Position numbers and translations under genes: made by a program
Assembly (NCBI GenBank): GCA_963749705.1
Contig: CAVVNQ010000003.1
Span: forward strand, 256,001-320,000
Length of the DNA: 64,000 nt
DNA from: an uncultured Chloroflexia bacterium
GTDB taxonomy: Bacteria; Chloroflexota; Limnocylindria; Limnocylindrales; CSP1-4
Reading direction: 5' to 3'
Part shown: one piece after another, positions 17,970 to 52,722 of the stretch
Layout: every line of letters begins with the position of its first letter
How positions within the stretch are numbered: the stretch's first letter is position 1
Notes under the pieces: model-generated
The model's input: the letters and a program-made list of their open reading frames with translations, nothing else
The model's database searches: none
Told to the model about the DNA's origin: nothing

Positions 17970-18883
17970 TCGCGATCGCCGGTGGCACCGGCCGCCTGGG
18001 CGCCGAGCTTGCCGCGCGTCTGGTCGAACGTGGACTCCAGGTGCGCATCCTCGCCCGCGATCCGTCTCGCGTTCCGGAGCCGCTCCGCGGCCGGACCGAG
18101 GTCGTGCGCGCAGACGTTCGAGATCCGGCAACGCTGGCCGTGGCGCTCGAGGGCGCCGACACCGTGGTCTCGGCGATCACCGGCTTCGGGGGTCCGGGCG
18201 CCGCCGGAGCCCGGGCCGTCGACGGCGACGGAAACATCGCCCTGATCGATGCAGCGGAGGCCGCGGGCGCACGGCACTTCGTCCTGCTGTCCGTCCGGAG
18301 CGCGGCGCCCGACGCTCCGGTGCGGCTGTTCCGCGAGAAGCACCGGGCCGAGCAGCGGCTCGGTGCGTCCCGCATGACCGGGACCATCATCCGGCCGACG
18401 GCGTACATGGAGACGTGGCTCGACCTCATGGGCCTGCCGCTGGTCACCACCGGCAGGACGCGGATCTTCGGCCGCGGACGCAACCCCATGAACTTCGTGT
18501 CGGCGTCGGACGTCGCCGCCATCGCCGAGCTCGCGCTGACGGATCCCTCGCTGCAGGGAACCGTGATCGACGCGATCGGCCCCGAGAACCTGACCATGAA
18601 CGAGCTCGTCGAGACCGTCCGGCGCGTCACCGGTGCCGCCGGCCGCGTCGATCACGCAAGCCCGGGCATGATGCGCGTCCTGGCGGCGGTGCTGCGGTTC
18701 GCGAAGCCGATCCTCGCCGACCAGGTACGGGCGGGTCTGCTGATGGACACCGCGGACATGCGCGTCGATCCCCGGGACGGTCGCTCGCGGTTCCCGTCGG
18801 TCCCGATGACGACGCTCGAAGCCGTCGCGCGGCGCCGGCTCCCGCAGGCCGCCGGAGCCGCAACCGCTCCGACCCCCGGTTGA
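17966..18883 (+). CDS. NAD(P)H-binding NmrA/SDR-like oxidoreductase
   Basis: IAGGTGRLG Rossmann motif, IIRPTAYME; ATGA overlap. Confidence 0.85.
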   Translation: MIAIAGGTGRLGAELAARLVERGLQVRILARDPSRVPEPLRGRTEVVRADVRDPATLAVALEGADTVVSAITGFGGPGAAGARAVDGDGNIALIDAAEAAGARHFVLLSVRSAAPDAPVRLFREKHRAEQRLGASRMTGTIIRPTAYMETWLDLMGLPLVTTGRTRIFGRGRNPMNFVSASDVAAIAELALTDPSLQGTVIDAIGPENLTMNELVETVRRVTGAAGRVDHASPGMMRVLAAVLRFAKPILADQVRAGLLMDTADMRVDPRDGRSRFPSVPMTTLEAVARRRLPQAAGAATAPTPG

Positions 18884-18996
18884 CCGCAGGGAGGGACTCT
18901 CGCGGCACACAGGGATTCTCACGGGCGGCCCGCGTATGCTAGCCTTCCAATCCCGACCAATCCACTCGGATATGCGATGCCCACCCACCAGACCGC

Positions 18997-19455
18997 ATGG
19001 CCAACCCGCTGACCGCCGAGCCCGGCGTGATCGGCAACCGTCCGGCGCCGGACGGGATGCCCGATCCCGGCATCCAGCCGCCGTCGATCGCCGAGGCCGG
19101 TGACCCGTTCAGCGCGCTGCGCATCGTCGACCTCGTCGCCCGGATCGATCGCGGTCACCCGGTGCGCATCGACGACCTGGTGGACAGGCTCAATGCAACG
19201 TACCTCGACTGGCTGTTCACGCGATCGGTGGTGGTCGACACGCTGATCGCCCTCCAGGCGAACTGGATGGCCGACTATCGCAACGCCTCCGGGATCGTGC
19301 TCGAGGACGGCGGCCCGTACGGCGCCACCGTCACCATCGAGGACTCCAGCCGCGTTGACCCGTGGATCGTCCGCCAGGCGAACCGCGAGGCGACCGAGTG
19401 CCGGGCCCGCCTGGCCGAGTTCGCCCGGCGCGACCGCCCGTCAGGCGGTGGCTGA
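18997..19455 (+). CDS. Conserved-looking hypothetical protein (possible winged helix)
   Basis: Strong GC3 bias, globular composition, no recognised motif. Confidence 0.7.
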   Translation: MANPLTAEPGVIGNRPAPDGMPDPGIQPPSIAEAGDPFSALRIVDLVARIDRGHPVRIDDLVDRLNATYLDWLFTRSVVVDTLIALQANWMADYRNASGIVLEDGGPYGATVTIEDSSRVDPWIVRQANREATECRARLAEFARRDRPSGGG

Positions 19456-19456
19456 G

Positions 19457-19531
19457 ATGCACGTCCGTGGACATCGCTGCGCGTGTCCGAGGCGGGCCCG
19501 GTCCCGACCGGCCGTTCGCCCGCCGACCTGA
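19457..19531 (+). CDS. Putative Cys-containing leader peptide MHVRGHRCACPRRARSRPAVRPPT
   Basis: ATG 1 nt after the upstream TGA; RCAC core identical at DNA level to the sORF at 50076; precedes rhodanese. Confidence 0.55.
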   Translation: MHVRGHRCACPRRARSRPAVRPPT

Positions 19532-19634
19532 TCCCGCCGCTCCGGACCGGCTCCGCGGCCCCGGTCCCGAGCATCGCCGGCGCTCGTGCGCCGCGGCGCC
19601 GCGTCCCAACGCCAGCACCCAGGAGCTTCACCGC

Positions 19635-20498
19635 ATGTCCGTTCCCGGCTACGCCAAGGACGTCCTCGTCTCCGCCGAGTGGGCGAGGGCCCACCTGGAC
19701 GATCCCGCCGTCCGGTTCGTCGAGGTCGACGTCGACACCACCGCCTACGACCAGAGCCATATTCCCGGCGCCGTCGCCTGGAGCTGGACCAGCCAGCTGT
19801 CCGACGGTGTCCGGCGCGACATCGCCACGCCCGACGAGTTCAGCGCCCTGCTGAGCGCGAGCGGCATCGGACCCGATACCACGGTGGTCCTGTACGGCGA
19901 CAACAACAACTGGTTCGCCGCCTGGGCGTACTGGCAGCTCAAGCTCTACGGACACGACCGGGCGCGGCTGCTCAACGGTGGTCGCCGGTACTGGCTGGAC
20001 CAGAACCTCCCGCTGTCCACCGAGGTTCCCTCGTACCCCGCGACCGGCTACCGGCTGGGCTCGCTCGACCTCTCGATCCGGGCGTTCCGTGACGACATCC
20101 TGCCCCGCCTCGGCGACCCGCAGCTGGCCCTCGTCGACGTCCGCTCACCCGCCGAGTACAACGGCGAGGTCATCGCCCCGCCGGGCATGACCGAGACGGC
20201 CCAGCGCGGCGGCCACATCCCGGGTGCCGCCTCGATCCCGTGGGCGCAGACCGTGCGCGAGGACGGCACCTTCAAGAGCACCGACGAGCTCGAGGCGCTG
20301 TACGGCGCCAAGGGGGTGACCAGGGATCGCGACGTGATCGCGTACTGCCGGATCGGTGAGCGGTCCTCGCACACGTGGTTCGTGCTCCGTGAGCTGCTCG
20401 GGTTCGAACGGGTGCGCAACTACGACGGATCGTGGACCGAGTGGGGCTCGATGGTCGGCGTGCCGATCGAGAAGGGCGCCGCCGGGGCGACCGGCTAG
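19635..20498 (+). CDS. Thiosulfate sulfurtransferase (tandem rhodanese, CysA/SseA-like)
   Basis: HIPGAV, LYGDNNNWFAA, DVRSPAEY, YCRIGERSS, NYDGSWTEW; AGGAG RBS. Confidence 0.93.
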   Translation: MSVPGYAKDVLVSAEWARAHLDDPAVRFVEVDVDTTAYDQSHIPGAVAWSWTSQLSDGVRRDIATPDEFSALLSASGIGPDTTVVLYGDNNNWFAAWAYWQLKLYGHDRARLLNGGRRYWLDQNLPLSTEVPSYPATGYRLGSLDLSIRAFRDDILPRLGDPQLALVDVRSPAEYNGEVIAPPGMTETAQRGGHIPGAASIPWAQTVREDGTFKSTDELEALYGAKGVTRDRDVIAYCRIGERSSHTWFVLRELLGFERVRNYDGSWTEWGSMVGVPIEKGAAGATG

Positions 20499-46919: not shown

Positions 46920-47465
46920 CTGACCACCCGCGCGACCTTCCACGGATCCGGCGCCGTCGCCTTCAGCACGAAGGGCGAGTACGGCGTGCGGCTGATGGTC
47001 CAGCTGGGCCGCCGGTATGGCACCGGCCCCGCCAGCCTGGCCGAGATCGCGCTGGACGAGGACCTGCCGCGCGCCTACCTGGAGCAGCTCGTCACGAGCC
47101 TCCGGGACGCCGGCCTGGTCGTGTCCACGCGCGGCGCGCGCGGCGGCTACGAGCTTGGCTCCCCGCCCGACAGCATCCGGATGAGCGACGTCCTGCGCGC
47201 GCTGGAAGGCCCGATCGCCCCGATGATCTGCGCGTCGGACGAGCACGAGCACACCACCTGCGACCGCTCGGCCCGATGCACGGTCAACGTCCTGTGGGTG
47301 GCGGTCCGCGACGCGATCTCGGGCACGCTCGACGCCATGACGCTGGCGGACCTCGTCCCCGCCCGGCACATCACCCTCGACCCCCGCGACCCGGCCGCGT
47401 CCCCGGCCGTGGTCGCGCCGGGGTCGGCCCCCAGTACCGCAACCCTCCAGGGAGCCTCTTCGTGA
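46920..47465 (+). CDS. Rrf2-family regulator (IscR/SufR-like)
   Basis: [33 protein letters not shown], three Cys; CTG start inferred. Confidence 0.88.
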
Positions 47466-48343
47466 CCGATACCAACGACCGCGAGCTCGTCATCTCGGAC
47501 CTTCGGGTCGCGCCGATCGCGCACCCGGAGACGGAGATCCTCCAGGGGATCAACCTCACGATCCGCAAGGGCGAGACCCACGCGATCATGGGTCCCAACG
47601 GCTCCGGCAAGACGACCCTCGCCTACGCGCTCATGGGTCACCCCGCCTACGTCGTCAAGAGCGGCGAGGTCACCTGGAAGGGCCGCAACCTGCTGGCGCT
47701 GTCCCCGGACAAGCGGTCCCGCCTCGGGCTGTTCCTCGCCTTCCAGTACCCGACCGCGATCCCCGGGCTGAGCGTGGCGAGCTTCGTCCGCAGCGCGCTC
47801 AACGCCAAGCTCCAGGGCATCGACAAGGACCCCGACATCGATCCCACCGACAGCATCAAGGGCGGGGTCTCGATGCTCGAGTTCCGGCGCAAGATGCGGG
47901 AGAAGATGGCGCTCCTCAAGATGGAGGACAGCTTCGCCAGCCGGTACGTCAACGATGGCTTCTCGGGCGGTGAGAAGAAGCGGCTGGAGATGCTCCAGAT
48001 GGCGATGCTCGAGCCCGAGTTCGCGGTGCTCGACGAGACAGACTCGGGGCTGGACATCGACGCCCTGCGCATCGTGGCCGAGGGCGTCAACGCGATGCTC
48101 AACCCGGAGATGGGCGTTCTCCTGATCACGCACTACCAGCGGCTGCTCAACTACATCACGCCCGATTACGTCCACGTGCTGGCGGCCGGCCGGATCGTGA
48201 CCTCCGGTGGCAAGGAGCTCGCGATCCGACTCGAGGACGAGGGCTACGGCCCGATCCTGCGCGAGAACGGCCTGGCGACCGACGTTCCCGACGAGGCGCT
48301 CGCCATCCCCCTGGAGCCCGAGGTCGCCGGCGCGAGCCGGTAG
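47462..48343 (+). CDS. sufC: Fe-S assembly ATPase SufC
   Basis: [50 protein letters not shown]. Confidence 0.95.
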
Positions 48344-48349
48344 CGCGCG

Positions 48350-49673
48350 ATGACCACCGAGGCACGCCCGCTCGCGGCCGCCGCTGTCGGGGACGCGACC
48401 CCGTCCCCGTCAATCGGCGCGCACCACTGCGGCACTGGACGCCGCGCGGATCCGACGCGACTTTCCGATCCTCGACCAGCAGGTCCACGGCCACCGGTTC
48501 GCCTACCTGGACTCCGCGGCGACCTCGCAGAAGCCGCTCGCGGTGATCGAGGCGGTGGATGCCTACTACCGGGAGTACAACGCCAACGTCCATCGCGGGA
48601 TCTACACCATCGGCGAGCGGGCGACGGCCGCCTACGAGGCGGCGCGCGTCAAGGTCGCGACGCTGATCGGGGCGCCGGACGCGCACGAGGTCGTGAACGT
48701 CCGCAACGCGACCGAGGCGATCAACCTCGTGGCGTACTCGTGGGGGCGCAAGAACATCGGCCGCGGCGACGTGATCGTGCTGACCGAGATGGAGCACCAC
48801 GCCAACCTCGTCCCGTGGCAGCTGCTCGCCCAGGAGAAGGACGCGGACCTCGAGTTCATCCCGATCACCGACGACGGCGTCCTCCGCCAGGACGTGTTCG
48901 AGGTGCTGTTGCGGCTCAAGCCCAAGCTGGTCGCGTTCGCGCACGTGTCGAACACGCTGGGCACGATCAACCCCGTCGAGGACATGACCCGCCGGGCGCA
49001 CGAGGCCGGCGCGCTGGTCCTGATCGACGGCGCCCAGGCGGTGCCGCACCTGCCCGTCGACGTGGCCGCGATCGGCTGCGACTTCTACGTGTTCAGCGGA
49101 CACAAGGCGCTCGCGCCCATGGGCTCCGGCGCGCTGTGGGCCCGCCGCGAGCTGCTCGAGGCGATGCCGCCGTTCCTGGGCGGCGGGGAGATGATCCGCG
49201 AGGTCCACCTGCGCCGATCGGAATGGAACACCGTCCCGCACAAGTTCGAGGCCGGCACGCCGGACGTGTCCGCCGCCATCGGTCTCGGCGTCGCCGCCGA
49301 CTACCTGCTCGAGCTGGGCATGGACAAGGTGTTCGCGCACGAGCAGGCGCTCGCGGCGTACGCCCTCGATGTCCTGGCGCGCGAGGTCCCGGGGATCGAG
49401 CTGTACGGGCCGCCCGCAGCGCAGCGGGTCGGCGTCGTGTCGTTCAACCTGCCGGGTGTCCACCCGCATGACGTGGCGCAGGTGCTGGACCGCTTCGGGG
49501 TGGCCGTCCGCGCCGGGCACCACTGCACGATGCCGCTCCACGAGCGGCTGGATCTCACGGCGACGGCGCGGGCCTCGTTCCAGGTGTACACGACGCGGGA
49601 CGACATCGACGCGCTCGTCAACGGCCTTCGCGAGGTGGTCAAGCTCTTCGGCGCTCCACCGTCGCTATCCTGA
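48350..49673 (+). CDS. sufS: Cysteine desulfurase SufS (frame break between ATG 48350 and the conserved frame starting about 48435)
   Basis: IRRDFPIL, YLDSAATSQKP, NVHRG, FSGHK, RAGHHC; the conserved frame has no ATG/GTG/TTG upstream of LDAARIRRDFP. Confidence 0.9.
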
Positions 49674-49680
49674 GCACGGC

Positions 49681-50076
49681 ATGGACGACCTGTACCGCGA
49701 CTACATCCTCGAGCACTATCGGCGACCCCACAACTTCGGGGTCCTCGACGAGCCGTCCGCGACCCATGAGGGCGCGAACCCGTTGTGCGGCGACCGGATC
49801 ACGATGCAGCTGACGATCCGCGACGGCGTCGTCGAGGACATCGGGTTCACCGGCCGCGGCTGCGCGATCAGCCAGGCCTCGGCCTCCCTGCTGACCGACG
49901 AGATCAAGGGCAAGCCCGTGGCCGACGCGGCCGACTTCGGTGCGGCCGACCTGCTCGACCTGCTCGGGATCGACATCAGTCCGGCCAGGCTCAAGTGCGC
50001 GATGCTCAGCTTCGACTCCCTGCAACACCTGCTCGACGAGGTCGGCGCGAAGCCGCTCGTGAAGGAGCAGGGCTGA
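49681..50076 (+). CDS. sufU: SufU/NifU-like sulfur-transfer protein
   Basis: LYRDYILEHYRRPHNFG, NPLCGD, GCAISQASAS, RLKCAML. Confidence 0.93.
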   Translation: MDDLYRDYILEHYRRPHNFGVLDEPSATHEGANPLCGDRITMQLTIRDGVVEDIGFTGRGCAISQASASLLTDEIKGKPVADAADFGAADLLDLLGIDISPARLKCAMLSFDSLQHLLDEVGAKPLVKEQG

Positions 50077-50108
50077 TGCGCCGCTGCGCGTGTCGCCGGC
50101 CGGCCTGA
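50076..50108 (+). CDS. Putative Cys-containing leader peptide MRRCACRRPA
   Basis: TGATG overlap with the sufU stop; RCAC core shared with the sORF at 19457; precedes moeZ-cysO-cysM-mec. Confidence 0.6.
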   Translation: MRRCACRRPA

Positions 50109-50220
50109 CGCCGGCACGTCCCCGGCATCCGTCGGCGCGAACCACGCGCACCCGACCGGGAGCCCCCGACCCATCGTCCCCGCCCCGCCGTTCCACCGGC
50201 GGCCCGTCGTCCATCGGAGC

Positions 50221-51426
50221 ATGAACTCTCCAATGCCCAAGACCTATGCCGAGCTCCTCCGCGAGGCCCGCAGCGAGATCCGTGAGGTCACGCCGGCCGA
50301 GACGGATGCGCTGCGCCAGCGCGGCGGCATCGCGCTGATCGACGTCCGCGAGACGTCCGAGTGGGAGCAGGGCCACCTGCCCGGCGCGACCCACGTGTCC
50401 AAGAGCTACCTCGAGCAGGAGATCGAGGCCGCGGTCCCGAAGCGGGACACGCCCGTGGTCCTGTACTGCGCAGGTGGCATTCGCTCGCTGTTCGCCGGCC
50501 AGACGCTGGCGGCGATGGGCTACACGGATGTCGCCTCGATGACCGGCGGCTTCCAGGCCTGGAAGGGGCAGGGTCTCGACTGGACCCAGCCGGTCGTGCT
50601 CAGCGACCAGCAGAAGCTGCGCTACAGCCGTCACCTGCTGATCCCCGAGGTGGGGTCGGCCGGCCAGGCGAGGCTGCTGGGCTCGAAGGCGCTGCTGATC
50701 GGCGCCGGCGGGCTCGGGTCGCCGGCCTCGCTGTACCTCGCGGCCGCGGGCGTGGGCACGATCGGGATCGTCGACTTCGACGTCGTCGACCTGTCGAACC
50801 TCCAGCGCCAGGTCGTCCACACCAGCGACCGCGTGGGGGAGAAGAAGGTCGAGTCCGCACGCAGGACGCTGACCGCGCTCAATCCCGACGTGACCGTGGT
50901 CGCCCACGAGGAGATGCTGGTCGCGGACAACGTGGAGCGGATCATCGCCGGCTACGACGTCATCCTCGACGGCACCGACACGTTCGAGACGCGGTACATC
51001 CTCAACGACGCCGCGGTGGCGGCCGGGATCCCCGTCGTCCACGCGTCGGTGTTCCGGTTCGAGGGCCAGCTCACGACCTTCGTCCCGTACGAGGGCCCGT
51101 GCTACCGCTGCCTGTACCCGACGCCGCCGCCGCCCGAGCTCGCCCCCGGCTGCTCGGTGGCCGGGGTGCTGGGCGTGGTACCCGGGATCATGGGACTCCT
51201 CCAGGCGAACGAGGTGCTCAAGCTGCTGCTGGGGATCGGCGAGACGCTGGCCGGCCGGCTGCTGCTGTTCGACGCCCTCGAGACCGAGTTCACGGAGCTC
51301 AAGCTGCGGCGCGATCCGCACTGCCCGGTCTGCTCGGACGAGGCCCGGGCCGCGCGGGACGCGGGGACGCCGATCGCGGCTCCGGCCTACGGCGAGGGCG
51401 TGTTCACGCTCGGAGGATCGAGGTGA
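50221..51426 (+). CDS. moeZ: Rhodanese-ThiF/MoeB fusion (MoeZ-like sulfur-carrier activating enzyme)
   Basis: N-terminal DVRE..EW..GHLPG/YCAGGIRS; RYSRHLL, GAGGLGSP, SNLQRQ, CYRC, CPVC. Confidence 0.92.
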   Translation: MNSPMPKTYAELLREARSEIREVTPAETDALRQRGGIALIDVRETSEWEQGHLPGATHVSKSYLEQEIEAAVPKRDTPVVLYCAGGIRSLFAGQTLAAMGYTDVASMTGGFQAWKGQGLDWTQPVVLSDQQKLRYSRHLLIPEVGSAGQARLLGSKALLIGAGGLGSPASLYLAAAGVGTIGIVDFDVVDLSNLQRQVVHTSDRVGEKKVESARRTLTALNPDVTVVAHEEMLVADNVERIIAGYDVILDGTDTFETRYILNDAAVAAGIPVVHASVFRFEGQLTTFVPYEGPCYRCLYPTPPPPELAPGCSVAGVLGVVPGIMGLLQANEVLKLLLGIGETLAGRLLLFDALETEFTELKLRRDPHCPVCSDEARAARDAGTPIAAPAYGEGVFTLGGSR

Positions 51427-51710
51427 GCACGGTCAAGTTTCCCGCCGTGCTCCGCGCGAACGTCGGCGGCGCGCGCGAGGTTGACGCCGCCGGGTCCACG
51501 ATCGGCGAGGTGCTCGACACGCTCGTGTCGACCTATCCGTCATTGCGCGACCAGCTGTTCACCGACGACGGCGAGCTCAACCGGTTCGTCAACGTGTACG
51601 TGAACGGGCAGGACGTGCGCTACCTCGACGGTCGCAGGACGGCGGTCGCCGAGTCGGACGAGGTCCGGCTGCTGCCCGCGATGGCCGGTGGAGCCGGCGA
51701 GGCGAGGTGA
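51423..51710 (+). CDS. cysO: Ubiquitin-like sulfur carrier (MoaD/ThiS/CysO) with GG masked by an AGEAR tail
   Basis: RFVNVYVNGQDVRYL, LPAMAGG-AGEAR*; GTGA overlap. Confidence 0.85.
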   Translation: MSTVKFPAVLRANVGGAREVDAAGSTIGEVLDTLVSTYPSLRDQLFTDDGELNRFVNVYVNGQDVRYLDGRRTAVAESDEVRLLPAMAGGAGEAR

Positions 51711-51726
51711 CGCCGGGCGCGGCGGG

Positions 51727-52722
51727 GTGACCGCCGCCGACCACATCCACGCGCAGGCGCATGACGCCGTCGAGCGCCACGGCGGACGGTACGAGTCGAT
51801 CCTCGACGCCGTCGGTCATACGCCGCTGGTCGCGATCCCGCGGATGAGCCCCAACCCGCGCGTGGCGATCTACGCAAAGCTCGAGATGTACAACCCGACG
51901 GGGTCCGTCAAGGACCGCGCCGCGAAGTACCTCGTCGAGGACCTCGAGCGGCGCGGGCTGCTCCAGCCGGACTCGATCATCCTCGAGCCGACGTCGGGGA
52001 ACACCGGGATCGCGCTGGCCATGATCGGGCGGCGCAAGGGATACCGGGTGGCGCTGGTCATGCCCGACAACGTGACGATGGAGCGCCGCCAGGTGGCCGC
52101 CCTGTTCGGCGCCGAGATCATCGACTCGCCCGGGCGCCTCGGGTCCAACGGGGCGATTGCGATGGCCAAGGAGCTGTGCGCGAGCGATCCCCGGTTCGTG
52201 ATGCCCTACCAGTACGGCAACCCGGCCAACCCGCTGGCGCACTACGAGACGACCGGGCCGGAGATCCTGGCCGACTGCCCGGAGATCGACGTGTTCGTGG
52301 CGGGGCTGGGGACGTCGGGGACGCTGATGGGCACCGGGCGGTATCTGCGCGAGCACAAGCCGGGGGTAAGGATCGTCGCCGCGGAGCCGCTCCCCGGGGA
52401 AAACGTGCAGGGCCTGCGGTCGCTCGAGGAAGGCTTCGTGCCCGAGATCCTCGACCCCGAGATGCTCGATGCGAAGTACCTCGTGTCGAACCGGGATGCG
52501 GTCGCAGCCCTGCGGGACCTGGTGTTCCGGGAGGGCGTGTTCGCGGGCCCGTCCTGCGGCGCGGTGCTGGTCGCCGCGGCGCGCGAGGCCCGCACGATGG
52601 AGTCCGGCACGATCGTGGCGCTCCTGCCCGACGGCGGCTGGAAGTACCTCTCGGCCGGCACGTTCGAGCGCGCCCTGGACGAGATGGAGGACGATTTCGA
52701 GGGCGGGGTCAACTGGTGGTGA
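51727..52722 (+). CDS. cysM: PLP-dependent cysteine synthase (CysM-like)
   Basis: NPTGSVKDR, EPTSGNTGI, GLGTSGT, PDGGWKYLS; context with cysO and mec. Confidence 0.9.
   Translation: MTAADHIHAQAHDAVERHGGRYESILDAVGHTPLVAIPRMSPNPRVAIYAKLEMYNPTGSVKDRAAKYLVEDLERRGLLQPDSIILEPTSGNTGIALAMIGRRKGYRVALVMPDNVTMERRQVAALFGAEIIDSPGRLGSNGAIAMAKELCASDPRFVMPYQYGNPANPLAHYETTGPEILADCPEIDVFVAGLGTSGTLMGTGRYLREHKPGVRIVAAEPLPGENVQGLRSLEEGFVPEILDPEMLDAKYLVSNRDAVAALRDLVFREGVFAGPSCGAVLVAAAREARTMESGTIVALLPDGGWKYLSAGTFERALDEMEDDFEGGVNWW

Follow-up and report, generated by a model that had tools for sequence, protein, structure and literature searches.

We analyzed two small open reading frames (ORFs) within a 64,000-nucleotide stretch of DNA, hereafter the window, from an uncultured Chloroflexia bacterium (assembly GCA_963749705.1, contig CAVVNQ010000003.1, positions 256,001 to 320,000 of the forward strand). 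One lies upstream of a rhodanese-type sulfurtransferase gene (locus 1) and the other upstream of a moeZ-cysteine synthesis gene set (locus 2). Our comparison of sequences suggests that both ORFs probably act in cis as sensors of cysteine supply, in the form of operon-internal, translationally coupled leader peptides with a Cys-x-Cys (C-x-C) motif. The sensing part, that is, a translated ORF with selected Cys codons placed before cysteine and sulfur genes, was well supported by this comparison; the output step is hypothetical. The orthologous loci also supported the view that the short ORFs form one lineage-restricted family, which occurs before sulfur or cysteine genes in many genera of one family-level group. 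The lineage that carries true copies is Chloroflexota, not Actinobacteria.

Short ORF 1 (type A; MHVRGHRCACPRRARSRPAVRPPT followed by a stop) occupies positions 19457..19531 of the + strand, with its ATG at 19457-19459 and its stop TGA at 19529-19531. As the first-pass annotation of this DNA had stated, the ATG begins 1 nt past the stop of the ORF at 18997..19455 (+; TGA 19453-19455), which encodes a protein of 152 amino acids (aa) of unassigned family. A check of the sequence placed the proposed sensing codons, TGC GCG TGT for Cys-Ala-Cys, at 19478..19486 (+). Short ORF 2 (type B; MRRCACRRPA and a stop) lies at 50076..50108 (+), has its Cys codons at 50085-50093, and shares its ATG with the TGA of sufU in the sequence cTGATG. 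Both ORFs run into a GC-rich hairpin, H1. The type-A H1 (19491..19524, +; outer stem GGCGGGC/GCCCGCC, inner stem CGGTC/GGCCG) starts 4 nt past the TGT, and the stop of the locus 1 copy falls 4 nt past the hairpin whereas most relatives have it inside the H1 loop. The type-B H1 (GCCGGC-CTGAC-GCCGGC; 50099..50115, +) holds the stop TGA (50106-50108) in its loop. The Cys codons of locus 1 had earlier been assigned to a hairpin formed by GGACA and TGTCC. Both of these sequences are present (19469-19473 and 19484-19488), but they were kept in 2 of 33 type-A leaders (L001 and L002); the conserved hairpin is H1, which lies downstream of the Cys codons and has the stop within it or just past it.

Orthologs of the rhodanese were collected by a protein search of 41 related genomes (35 matched) that made no use of the motif. 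High-identity orthologs (78-96%) were found in 10 other genomes of the genus, and all 11 orthologous loci, the window included (78-100% identity), carry GGGCCGCTGCGCGTGT-NNNN-GGCGGGC upstream. The pattern TGCGCGTGTNNNNGGCSGGC was found in 26 of 70 same-genus genomes, and its reversed control in 0 of 70. For type A (..GGCGGGC), 21 of the 23 distinct matches sit 100-180 nt before a rhodanese ATG, and for type B (TGCGCGTGTCGCCGGCCGGC) all 9 matches lie between SufU-like and MoeZ-like genes. The two types are 23-35 kb apart on one contig in at least 8 genomes, as in the window, and both are also present in other genera of the family. We also sampled MoeZ loci independently of the motif in 46 genomes, each at least 90% complete and together representing 32 genera; 41 of the 46 matched, 30 loci were taken and the start was placed in 27. 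A C-x-C short ORF ending in (G)R-C-x-C-x-x-P-A and a stop was present 100-210 nt upstream of MoeZ at 24 of these 27 loci. The remaining loci had a single Cys (L266) or no Cys ORF (L253 and L261), and L265, in which the MoeZ start was unresolved, has the short ORF too. Across the class, a tighter pattern was found in 15 of 137 genomes of the window's family and in none of 263 genomes of four other families (0/16, 0/92, 0/153 and 0/2), with a control count of 0 everywhere. In the genome of the window itself, scans for CC/CxC short ORFs and for TGC..GTGT against crude gene calls gave no third member; a start codon, a short tail and a strong hairpin defined a member, and only the two loci qualified. 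The genome-wide search proposed by the first-pass annotation thus returned two family members, both before sulfur genes, along with three exact copies of the 13-mer considered next.

The 13-mer CGCTGCGCGTGTC is found at 19475-19487 and again at 50082-50094, in frame as R-C-A-C in both places, exactly as first noted. By itself the shared 13-mer is unremarkable, since 641 distinct 13-mers recur on the + strand of the window (71.5% GC; 345-402 in Markov resamples). The exact copies are 3 in a 3.6-Mb genome of 71.5% GC, and the pattern with up to one mismatch was seen 3 times in the window with 0.9 expected. Two segments of 178 and 157 nt, specified in advance, would share a 13-mer with a chance of 95/20000. 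Such a word might be common to two unrelated GC-rich intergenic regions by accident, but dozens of genomes retain both elements at the orthologous positions, and the reversed pattern used as a control had 0 matches. The finding exceeds chance because of this conservation, and the comparative data have already refuted a chance origin. The early judgement that the shared architecture was unlikely to be fortuitous therefore stands for the orthologous elements and not for the repeat, which is commonplace. The same comparison disfavors a 13-bp signal because the middle codon between the two Cys codons varies among relatives: the 18 type-B loci had AGG (12), GCG (3), GAG (1), ACG (1) and GGG (1), and ATG occurs in L250. 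The conserved feature is C-x-C, so the in-frame 13-bp operator that had been offered as an alternative was not borne out. Identity of the two 13-mers therefore reflects the kinship of the leaders and a common middle codon.

Open frames this short are expected by chance at 71% GC, and we therefore counted start codons by frame. At 21 type-A loci, the stretch from the upstream stop to the first Cys codon had its ATGs distributed 17/0/1 over the three frames. An in-frame ATG was present at 13 of the 21 and an in-frame ATG, GTG or TTG at 18, while two of the three loci without an in-frame start have CTG at the aligned position. At 18 type-B loci, the 75 nt that precede the Cys codons had ATGs in one frame only (18/0/0); the stop triplets there were skewed (1/1/20) because the upstream TGA overlaps the start as ATGA, GTGA or TGATG. 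The type-A start lies on the upstream stop or 0-6 nt past it, and overall the start overlapped or abutted the stop of the upstream cistron at 18 of 21 type-A and 18 of 18 type-B loci. The distance from start to Cys codons ranged from 0 nt (MCACLRRARSR and a stop, in L086) to 75 nt (L004) with the frame kept throughout. Homologous loci that lacked starts or frame had been named in advance as evidence against a peptide; starts in frame were what we found. Frame-specific starts are hard to explain otherwise, and ribosomes therefore likely read the short frames. We consider it very likely from these counts that the short ORFs are translated, and the position of the starts indicates loading by translational coupling rather than from a leaderless start.

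The two Cys positions were TGC and then TGT in every true copy of both types. By crude gene calls, Cys accounts for 0.675% of the codons of the genome, and TGT for 10.7% of its Cys codons. In type-A orthologous ORFs, (G)R-C-A-C-x-x-R-A-R-S comes after an N-terminus that varies. The variable N-termini of the short ORFs contained 13 Cys in 436 residues (3.0%; binomial p 1.2e-5, computed over kin that are not independent). The short ORF of L011 has C-A-C duplicated, and some relatives also carry CC, for example MMPGCCRCLPPA and MTVRSSCLGCCRCSEPA. Selection on the Cys codons was well supported by this sequence evidence. Past C-x-C, the tail of the peptide (x-x-R-A-R-S in type A and x-x-P-A in type B) is encoded by sequence that overlaps H1, and the apparently synonymous changes in the tails (GCC/GCA/GCT/GCG, CGG/CGA, TCN) fall on an H1 bulge, on the loop or on a compensated pair.

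In type A, H1 started 3-5 nt past the TGT in 33 of 33 leaders, with folds of -19 to -29.5 kcal/mol. In an alignment of 27 sequences (A4), 90.1% of the cells paired versus 34-45% with the partner slid. One pair changes from G-C to A-U in five sequences, and the G.U cells (6 and 11) pair only on the + strand. In type B, four core pairs of H1 were kept in 29-30 of 30 sequences by RNAalifold; variant stems occur in L243 and L257 (CCGGATC-GCT-GATCCG in the latter). The covariation analysis suggested by the first-pass annotation accordingly gave one compensated pair for the type-A H1 and an invariant type-B H1. A further stem-loop of type B, H3 (50185-50202, CCGCCG...CGGCGG), lies 8-15 nt before the Shine-Dalgarno sequence (SD), and its flanks CGCCCUG and CAGCCCGUCG are kept across genera. 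H3 stems differ between genera yet pair (CTGCCG/CGGCAG, CTGTCG/CGACAG and CTGACGTC/GGCGTCAG). The fold energy of H3 was no better than that of shuffles (-13.5 versus -12.8), and RNAalifold on MAFFT alignments returned only the four invariant core pairs of the type-B H1 and nothing for H3. Seen as a whole, the region before the MoeZ SD (50185-50215 in the window; L242-L267) is kept across genera: it runs from CGCCCUG through a stem-loop that shows compensatory changes to CAGCCCGUCG, and CGGAGC follows 3-6 nt later. No Rfam family matched at the gathering score in the whole window, and the top E-values for the leaders were 0.58 and 9, both from matches that fell far short of gathering.

Each leader continues into a C-rich spacer. 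At locus 1, the untranslated spacer (19532..19620, +) is C-rich and G-poor, a composition like that of Rho-utilization (rut) sites; measured over 19532-19622 it is 51% C and 32% G, which agrees with the C-rich spacer originally noted before the sulfurtransferase. The rhodanese ATG begins at 19635, and the end of the segment first described, 19634, is therefore correct. The locus 2 spacer (50116..50215, +) includes H3 just 5' of the SD and is 53% C and 28% G over 50109-50208. Spacers from stop to SD were 70-150 nt long and averaged 48% C in type A (n=33) and 51% in type B (n=21), with 26% G, and C exceeded G in 54 of 54 leaders (33 type A and 21 type B). The 286 other co-directional gaps of the genome had means of 39% C and 35% G, and 1% of them reached a C-G difference of at least 0.20. 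H1, a hairpin designated H2, and H3 are followed by C-rich and not by U-rich sequence. A Rho gene is present in the genome (608.5 bits, cut-off 509). A scan limited to the sigma-70-type consensus found no promoter-like site in either leader. Public runs recorded as RNA held at most 0.05 of the sampled words, and the contigs came from relatives that are 80-90% alike. One 399-nt RNA-library contig spans 50088-50490, from the leader into moeZ; since RNA libraries can contain DNA, it is not proof of a transcript.

We propose that ribosomes finishing the 152-aa gene or sufU would be handed over to the short ORF at the stop/start junctions seen at these loci. H1 starts 4-6 nt past the second Cys codon, and the stop lies in its loop, in its 3' arm or just behind it. 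With plentiful cysteine, the ribosome would run through the Cys codons, melt H1, terminate and leave, and expression of the downstream rhodanese or of the moeZ/CysO-like/CysM-like genes would be kept low, most plausibly by Rho loading on the spacer. With scarce cysteine, a low level of charged tRNA-Cys would stall translation at the Cys codons. If TGT occupied the A site, the 5' arm of H1 would fall within the ribosome footprint, whereas it would stay uncovered if the ribosome waited on the first Cys codon. The stall would then give more downstream transcript or translation through an alternative fold of the leader or a mismatch between transcription and translation. The direction of this response, more output at scarcity, is argued from the functions of the downstream genes. 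Rho-dependent polarity would be the likeliest output because of the spacer composition and the presence of a Rho gene, and we put forward a Rho-dependent output only tentatively. Such a model needs an added element, for example H1 acting as a pause signal or re-pairing of the freed H1 3' arm. Unmasking of the ribosome-binding site (RBS) of the mycobacterial type was unsupported because masked folds gave no consistent change in accessibility: in partition-function folds of 54 leaders, the unpaired probability of SD/start was 0.47/0.52 free and 0.51/0.54 with the ribosome footprint masked. Minimum free energy folds did shift under masking (H3, for example, appeared only in the masked L090), with no consistent alternative across leaders. 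What survives of the lineage-specific cysteine attenuation peptide family first suggested for these loci is therefore the family, its Cys codons and the signs of translation; attenuation is the part that we infer.

Several observations weigh against this interpretation. It is not obvious how Rho would be blocked by a ribosome that has stalled upstream of a rut site, and the output logic is incomplete to that extent. Intrinsic terminators numbered 0 in 18850-19700 and 49900-50300. Under footprint masking, SD/start became more accessible in 11 of the 33 type-A leaders and less so in 3; of the 21 type-B leaders, 3 gained and 5 lost accessibility. There are only two Cys codons, they are non-adjacent, and their failure to vary synonymously also fits a constraint at the nucleotide level. 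Because the ends of the peptides (RARS, PA) overlap H1, their conservation cannot be put down to the peptide, and the type-B H1 is without covariation support because its core is invariant. Kinship among the genomes also makes the frame and Cys-enrichment statistics look stronger than they are.

The elements could alternatively be structured cis-regulatory RNAs (GCUGCNNGUGU with H1, and with H3 in type B) that bind a ligand or protein or act in processing or stability, the frame being incidental. The unvarying TGC and TGT of true copies would fit this reading, as would the strong and conserved H1, the four variable nucleotides after the type-A TGT, which ignore codon borders (NNN N-GG), and the retention across genera of H3 with CGCCCUG...CAGCCCGUCG before the MoeZ SD. 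An untranslated RNA, however, has no need of frame-specific ATGs (17/0/1 and 18/0/0) and stop overlaps, nor of a frame kept despite N-terminal length changes of 0-75 nt. The H1 sequence moreover differs between types A and B, which would leave the short Cys motif as the only possible common binding site; in addition, Cys codons beyond the two are enriched, and zero Rfam families matched. We regard a structured RNA with an incidental frame as unlikely on these grounds.

The peptides might instead be functional products that use their C-x-C thiols to handle sulfur or metals, for instance by accepting persulfide next to SufU, the rhodanese or MoeZ. Neighboring genes do encode sulfur-transfer proteins, (G)R-C-x-C is kept together with basic tails (RARS or RRPA), and some tail changes are synonymous (GCC/GCA/GCT/GCG, TCC/TCT/TCG, CGG/CGA). 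Those synonymous sites, however, coincide with the H1 bulge or with compensated positions and give no sign of selection on the peptide. The products range from 10 to ~35 residues with unrelated N-termini, a middle residue that may be A, R, M, T, E or G, and tails that differ by type, and the sequence is too short to define a homologous protein family; we consider functional micropeptides improbable. We give still less weight to a DNA operator (TGCNNGTGT plus GC-rich inverted repeats) that is in frame by accident and is bound, for instance, by the CymR/IscR-like Rrf2 regulator encoded at 46986-47465. The identical 13-mer at both loci, the inverted repeats and the presence of an Rrf2-family gene upstream of the suf genes would suit an operator. 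The elements nevertheless lie between cistrons with no promoter-like site nearby in the sigma-70-type scan, the inverted repeats differ in sequence between types A and B, the H1 G.U cells (6 and 11) pair only in the + strand RNA, and the frame-specific ATGs and stop overlaps would be unexplained. An operator therefore appears very improbable.

The gene context was examined at both loci. Locus 1 consists of the 152-aa gene, the short ORF and a two-domain rhodanese, and the next gene is on the opposite strand. The 152-aa protein had zero matches in Pfam or NCBIfam, and its ORF has a GC content at third codon positions (GC3) of 0.92. At all 21 type-A loci examined, its stop and its C-terminal FARRDR block (..EFARRDR..) are conserved beside the start of the short ORF, and this gene is the constant direct upstream neighbor of the type-A short ORF. 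The SD and start of the rhodanese gene span 19621..19637 (+), with AGGAG at 19621-19625 and ATG at 19635-19637, and CAGGAGC is kept in the leaders of orthologous rhodanese loci. The rhodanese-type sulfurtransferase (19635..20498, +) is SseA/CysA-like and matches Pfam Rhodanese in two stretches (E 2e-34); its top NCBIfam match, 3-mercaptopyruvate sulfurtransferase, was under the cut-off at 127.7 bits. A 21-mer of short ORF 1, CTGCGCGTGTCCGAGGCGGGC, recurs outside the window on the minus strand at G000:C4:145267-145286. This copy was rejected as a further element as it reads as ordinary coding sequence (..DRLRVSEAGIREGAIL..; ..LRVSEAGIREG..), and the recurrence is probably a coincidence of preferred codons.

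At locus 2, an Rrf2-family regulator gene (46986-47465) heads the sufC-sufS-sufU row and would add a second, protein-based layer of control; the top matches of its product in a profile search were CymR and IscR, both under their cut-offs. SufC (47276-48343) and SufS (48543-49673) are encoded next in the row, and the SufU-type sulfur-transfer protein (49657..50076, +) scored 113.5 bits on TIGR01994 (cut-off 92.5). Downstream of the leader, the SD GGAG (50216-50219) precedes a MoeB/MoeZ-type adenylyl/sulfur-transferase gene with its ATG at 50233 (50216..51426 with the SD, +), whose product combines Pfam ThiF and Rhodanese domains and scored 553.9 bits on NF006444 (cut-off 449). The GTG of the next gene overlaps the moeZ stop as GTGA. 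This gene (51423..51710, +) encodes a CysO-like sulfur carrier of the ThiS family (Pfam ThiS, E 7.4e-15) whose end reads ...AMAGG plus five residues (AGEAR) trailing the GG motif. In mycobacteria, the C-terminus of the carrier CysO is processed by Mec before use, and the extra residues suggest that the carrier here may likewise be processed at its C-terminus. The last gene of the set (51688..52722, +) encodes a cysteine synthase of the CysM/CysK type (Pfam PALP), which scored 329.5 bits on TIGR01136 (cut-off 344) and 282.8 bits on TIGR01138 cysM. The CysO-CysM pathway of Mycobacterium tuberculosis is a thiocarboxylate-dependent route of cysteine synthesis, and the set of moeZ, CysO-like and CysM-like genes looks like such a route. 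A cysteine-sensing leader at locus 2 is biologically sensible because the downstream genes form this apparent cysteine route.

Outside the family, eight MoeZ loci were taken and the upstream region was viewed in seven (L274, matched only from residue 104, was omitted). Three of the seven had an upstream region of their own but no Cys ORF, and SufU abuts MoeZ in two. In L277, from a second genus, there was only a 44-codon frame with three scattered Cys codons, which we read as chance. L275, from another family of the class, has a 28-codon ORF, MSRSFAGRPVSCLQSTGRCTPPTCRIGA and a stop, with three Cys codons ~210 nt upstream of MoeZ; it overlaps the SufU stop as GGATGA and may be a distant relative of type B. 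Another conserved short ORF, M-T-S-(T/M/S)-Q-L-R-A-L-E-G-E-P-S-I-C-stop, was observed in a second genus of the same order (L012-L020), ~60-200 nt upstream of the start of a rhodanese that is 51% identical. Its single Cys codon is the last one before the stop, and a -10-like TGGTATCGT located 6-7 nt 5' of the ATG would make it leaderless; this ORF may be a different version of the same regulatory principle.

Some motif matches were set aside. L042, L051 and L089 have no same-strand gene and miss the usual context, and they were dropped as members. L042 (G009) and L051 (G080) show a type-A-like motif without a start codon or downstream rhodanese, and G009 also holds a 22-residue C-terminal fragment of a rhodanese elsewhere; the two copies may be remnants. 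The degenerate pattern TGYGCNTGYNNNNGGCSGGC was as frequent across the family as its reversed control and served only as a source of candidates. Its tally includes two unpublished genomes (G219 and G270), and our claims are independent of both. A scan of species genomes gave at least 120 stretches, mostly chance matches in unrelated high-GC bacteria, with 6 true copies among the matches listed (L130, L190, L192, L202, L208 and L213). As the matches listed are a part of the whole and mostly due to chance, the scan does not settle the breadth of the family.

Cysteine-sensing leader peptides have, to our knowledge, been shown experimentally only in mycobacteria. Amino acid-responsive leaders of other kinds offer partial parallels. 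The leader ORFs trpL, hisL and pheL, among others, overlap RNA structure and are enriched in codons for whichever amino acid the downstream genes make. The ORFs described here are similar in carrying codons of the putative regulating amino acid (two invariant Cys codons and extra Cys) but lack a terminator hairpin with a U tract, and the element lies between genes and not at the start of an operon. In the tna leader (TnaC) of Escherichia coli, a ribosome that stalls at the leader ORF's end relieves Rho-dependent attenuation. The likeness lies in a short leader ORF followed by a rut-like region with no intrinsic terminator, where the position of the ribosome would decide the action of Rho. The signal for TnaC, however, is free tryptophan, sensed by the nascent peptide while the ribosome is at the stop, whereas here decoding of Cys codons 4-8 codons before the stop is proposed. 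In contrast to TnaC, moreover, no boxA or rut site is defined here, and the likeness is one of composition only.

In mycobacteria, an operon with the sulfurtransferase gene cysA2 is under the control of Cys-codon leader ORFs (Canestrari et al., bioRxiv 10.1101/834739). That preprint's polycysteine leaderless short ORFs (Ms5788A/Rv0815A, the 'Cys ribulon') are the nearest experimentally studied system. As presented there, the 'Cys ribulon' resembles our loci in having an unannotated short ORF with Cys codons before cysteine-related genes, including a thiosulfate sulfurtransferase (cysA2), in having several loci per genome, and in the ribosome as the proposed cysteine sensor. By the same account, the mycobacterial ORF is leaderless, whereas here the start lies on or next to the stop of the upstream cistron inside an operon. 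The preprint's criterion is at least two consecutive Cys codons, whereas the motif here is C-x-C (C-A-C in both window copies), and it describes a helix that sequesters the RBS, whereas our folds support none. Also unlike the system as described there, the stop lies in or just after a conserved GC hairpin and the host belongs to Chloroflexota. The family thus appears to share the mycobacterial logic yet is set apart, as far as the preprint defines that system, because it is without the leaderless start and the consecutive Cys codons. Cys leader peptides that lack terminators were predicted by Seliverstov et al. (2005; PMC1262725), who suggested Rho-dependent termination for them. The leaders described in that paper are like ours in having Cys codons near the stop, no recognizable terminator and a pyrimidine-rich region before the first gene. 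They are described there as runs of Cys codons at operon 5' ends in Actinobacteria, whereas the present ones are C-x-C ORFs between cistrons with a conserved hairpin, and the pyrimidine motifs are given there as not conserved, whereas C excess was seen in 54 of 54 leaders here. Full-text literature searches, with supplements outside their scope, found no Cys-codon leaders of this kind in Chloroflexota. What is new is the Chloroflexota C-x-C leader family and its inter-cistronic design; sensing by Cys-codon leaders is known.

The arrangement may possibly amount to an undescribed sensing design, although we hold this with reserve: an inter-cistronic TGC-x-TGT ORF, reached by termination-reinitiation, with its stop in or after a hairpin and a rut-like output, that links a CysO/CysM route with a sulfurtransferase. 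For annotation, a C-x-C short ORF over the sufU stop marks the start of an apparently separately regulated moeZ/cysO-like/cysM-like unit, and the family would serve as a compact, testable case of terminator-free attenuation. If our reading is true, two non-adjacent Cys codons, one of them rare, can suffice for sensing, and the device can sit inside an operon where it is fed by translational coupling. Ribosome-based cysteine sensing would then have arisen, or spread, in an uncultured soil phylum, and under the undescribed design the CysO/CysM thiocarboxylate route and the sulfurtransferase would form one ribosome-sensed regulon in one family-level lineage of soil Chloroflexota.

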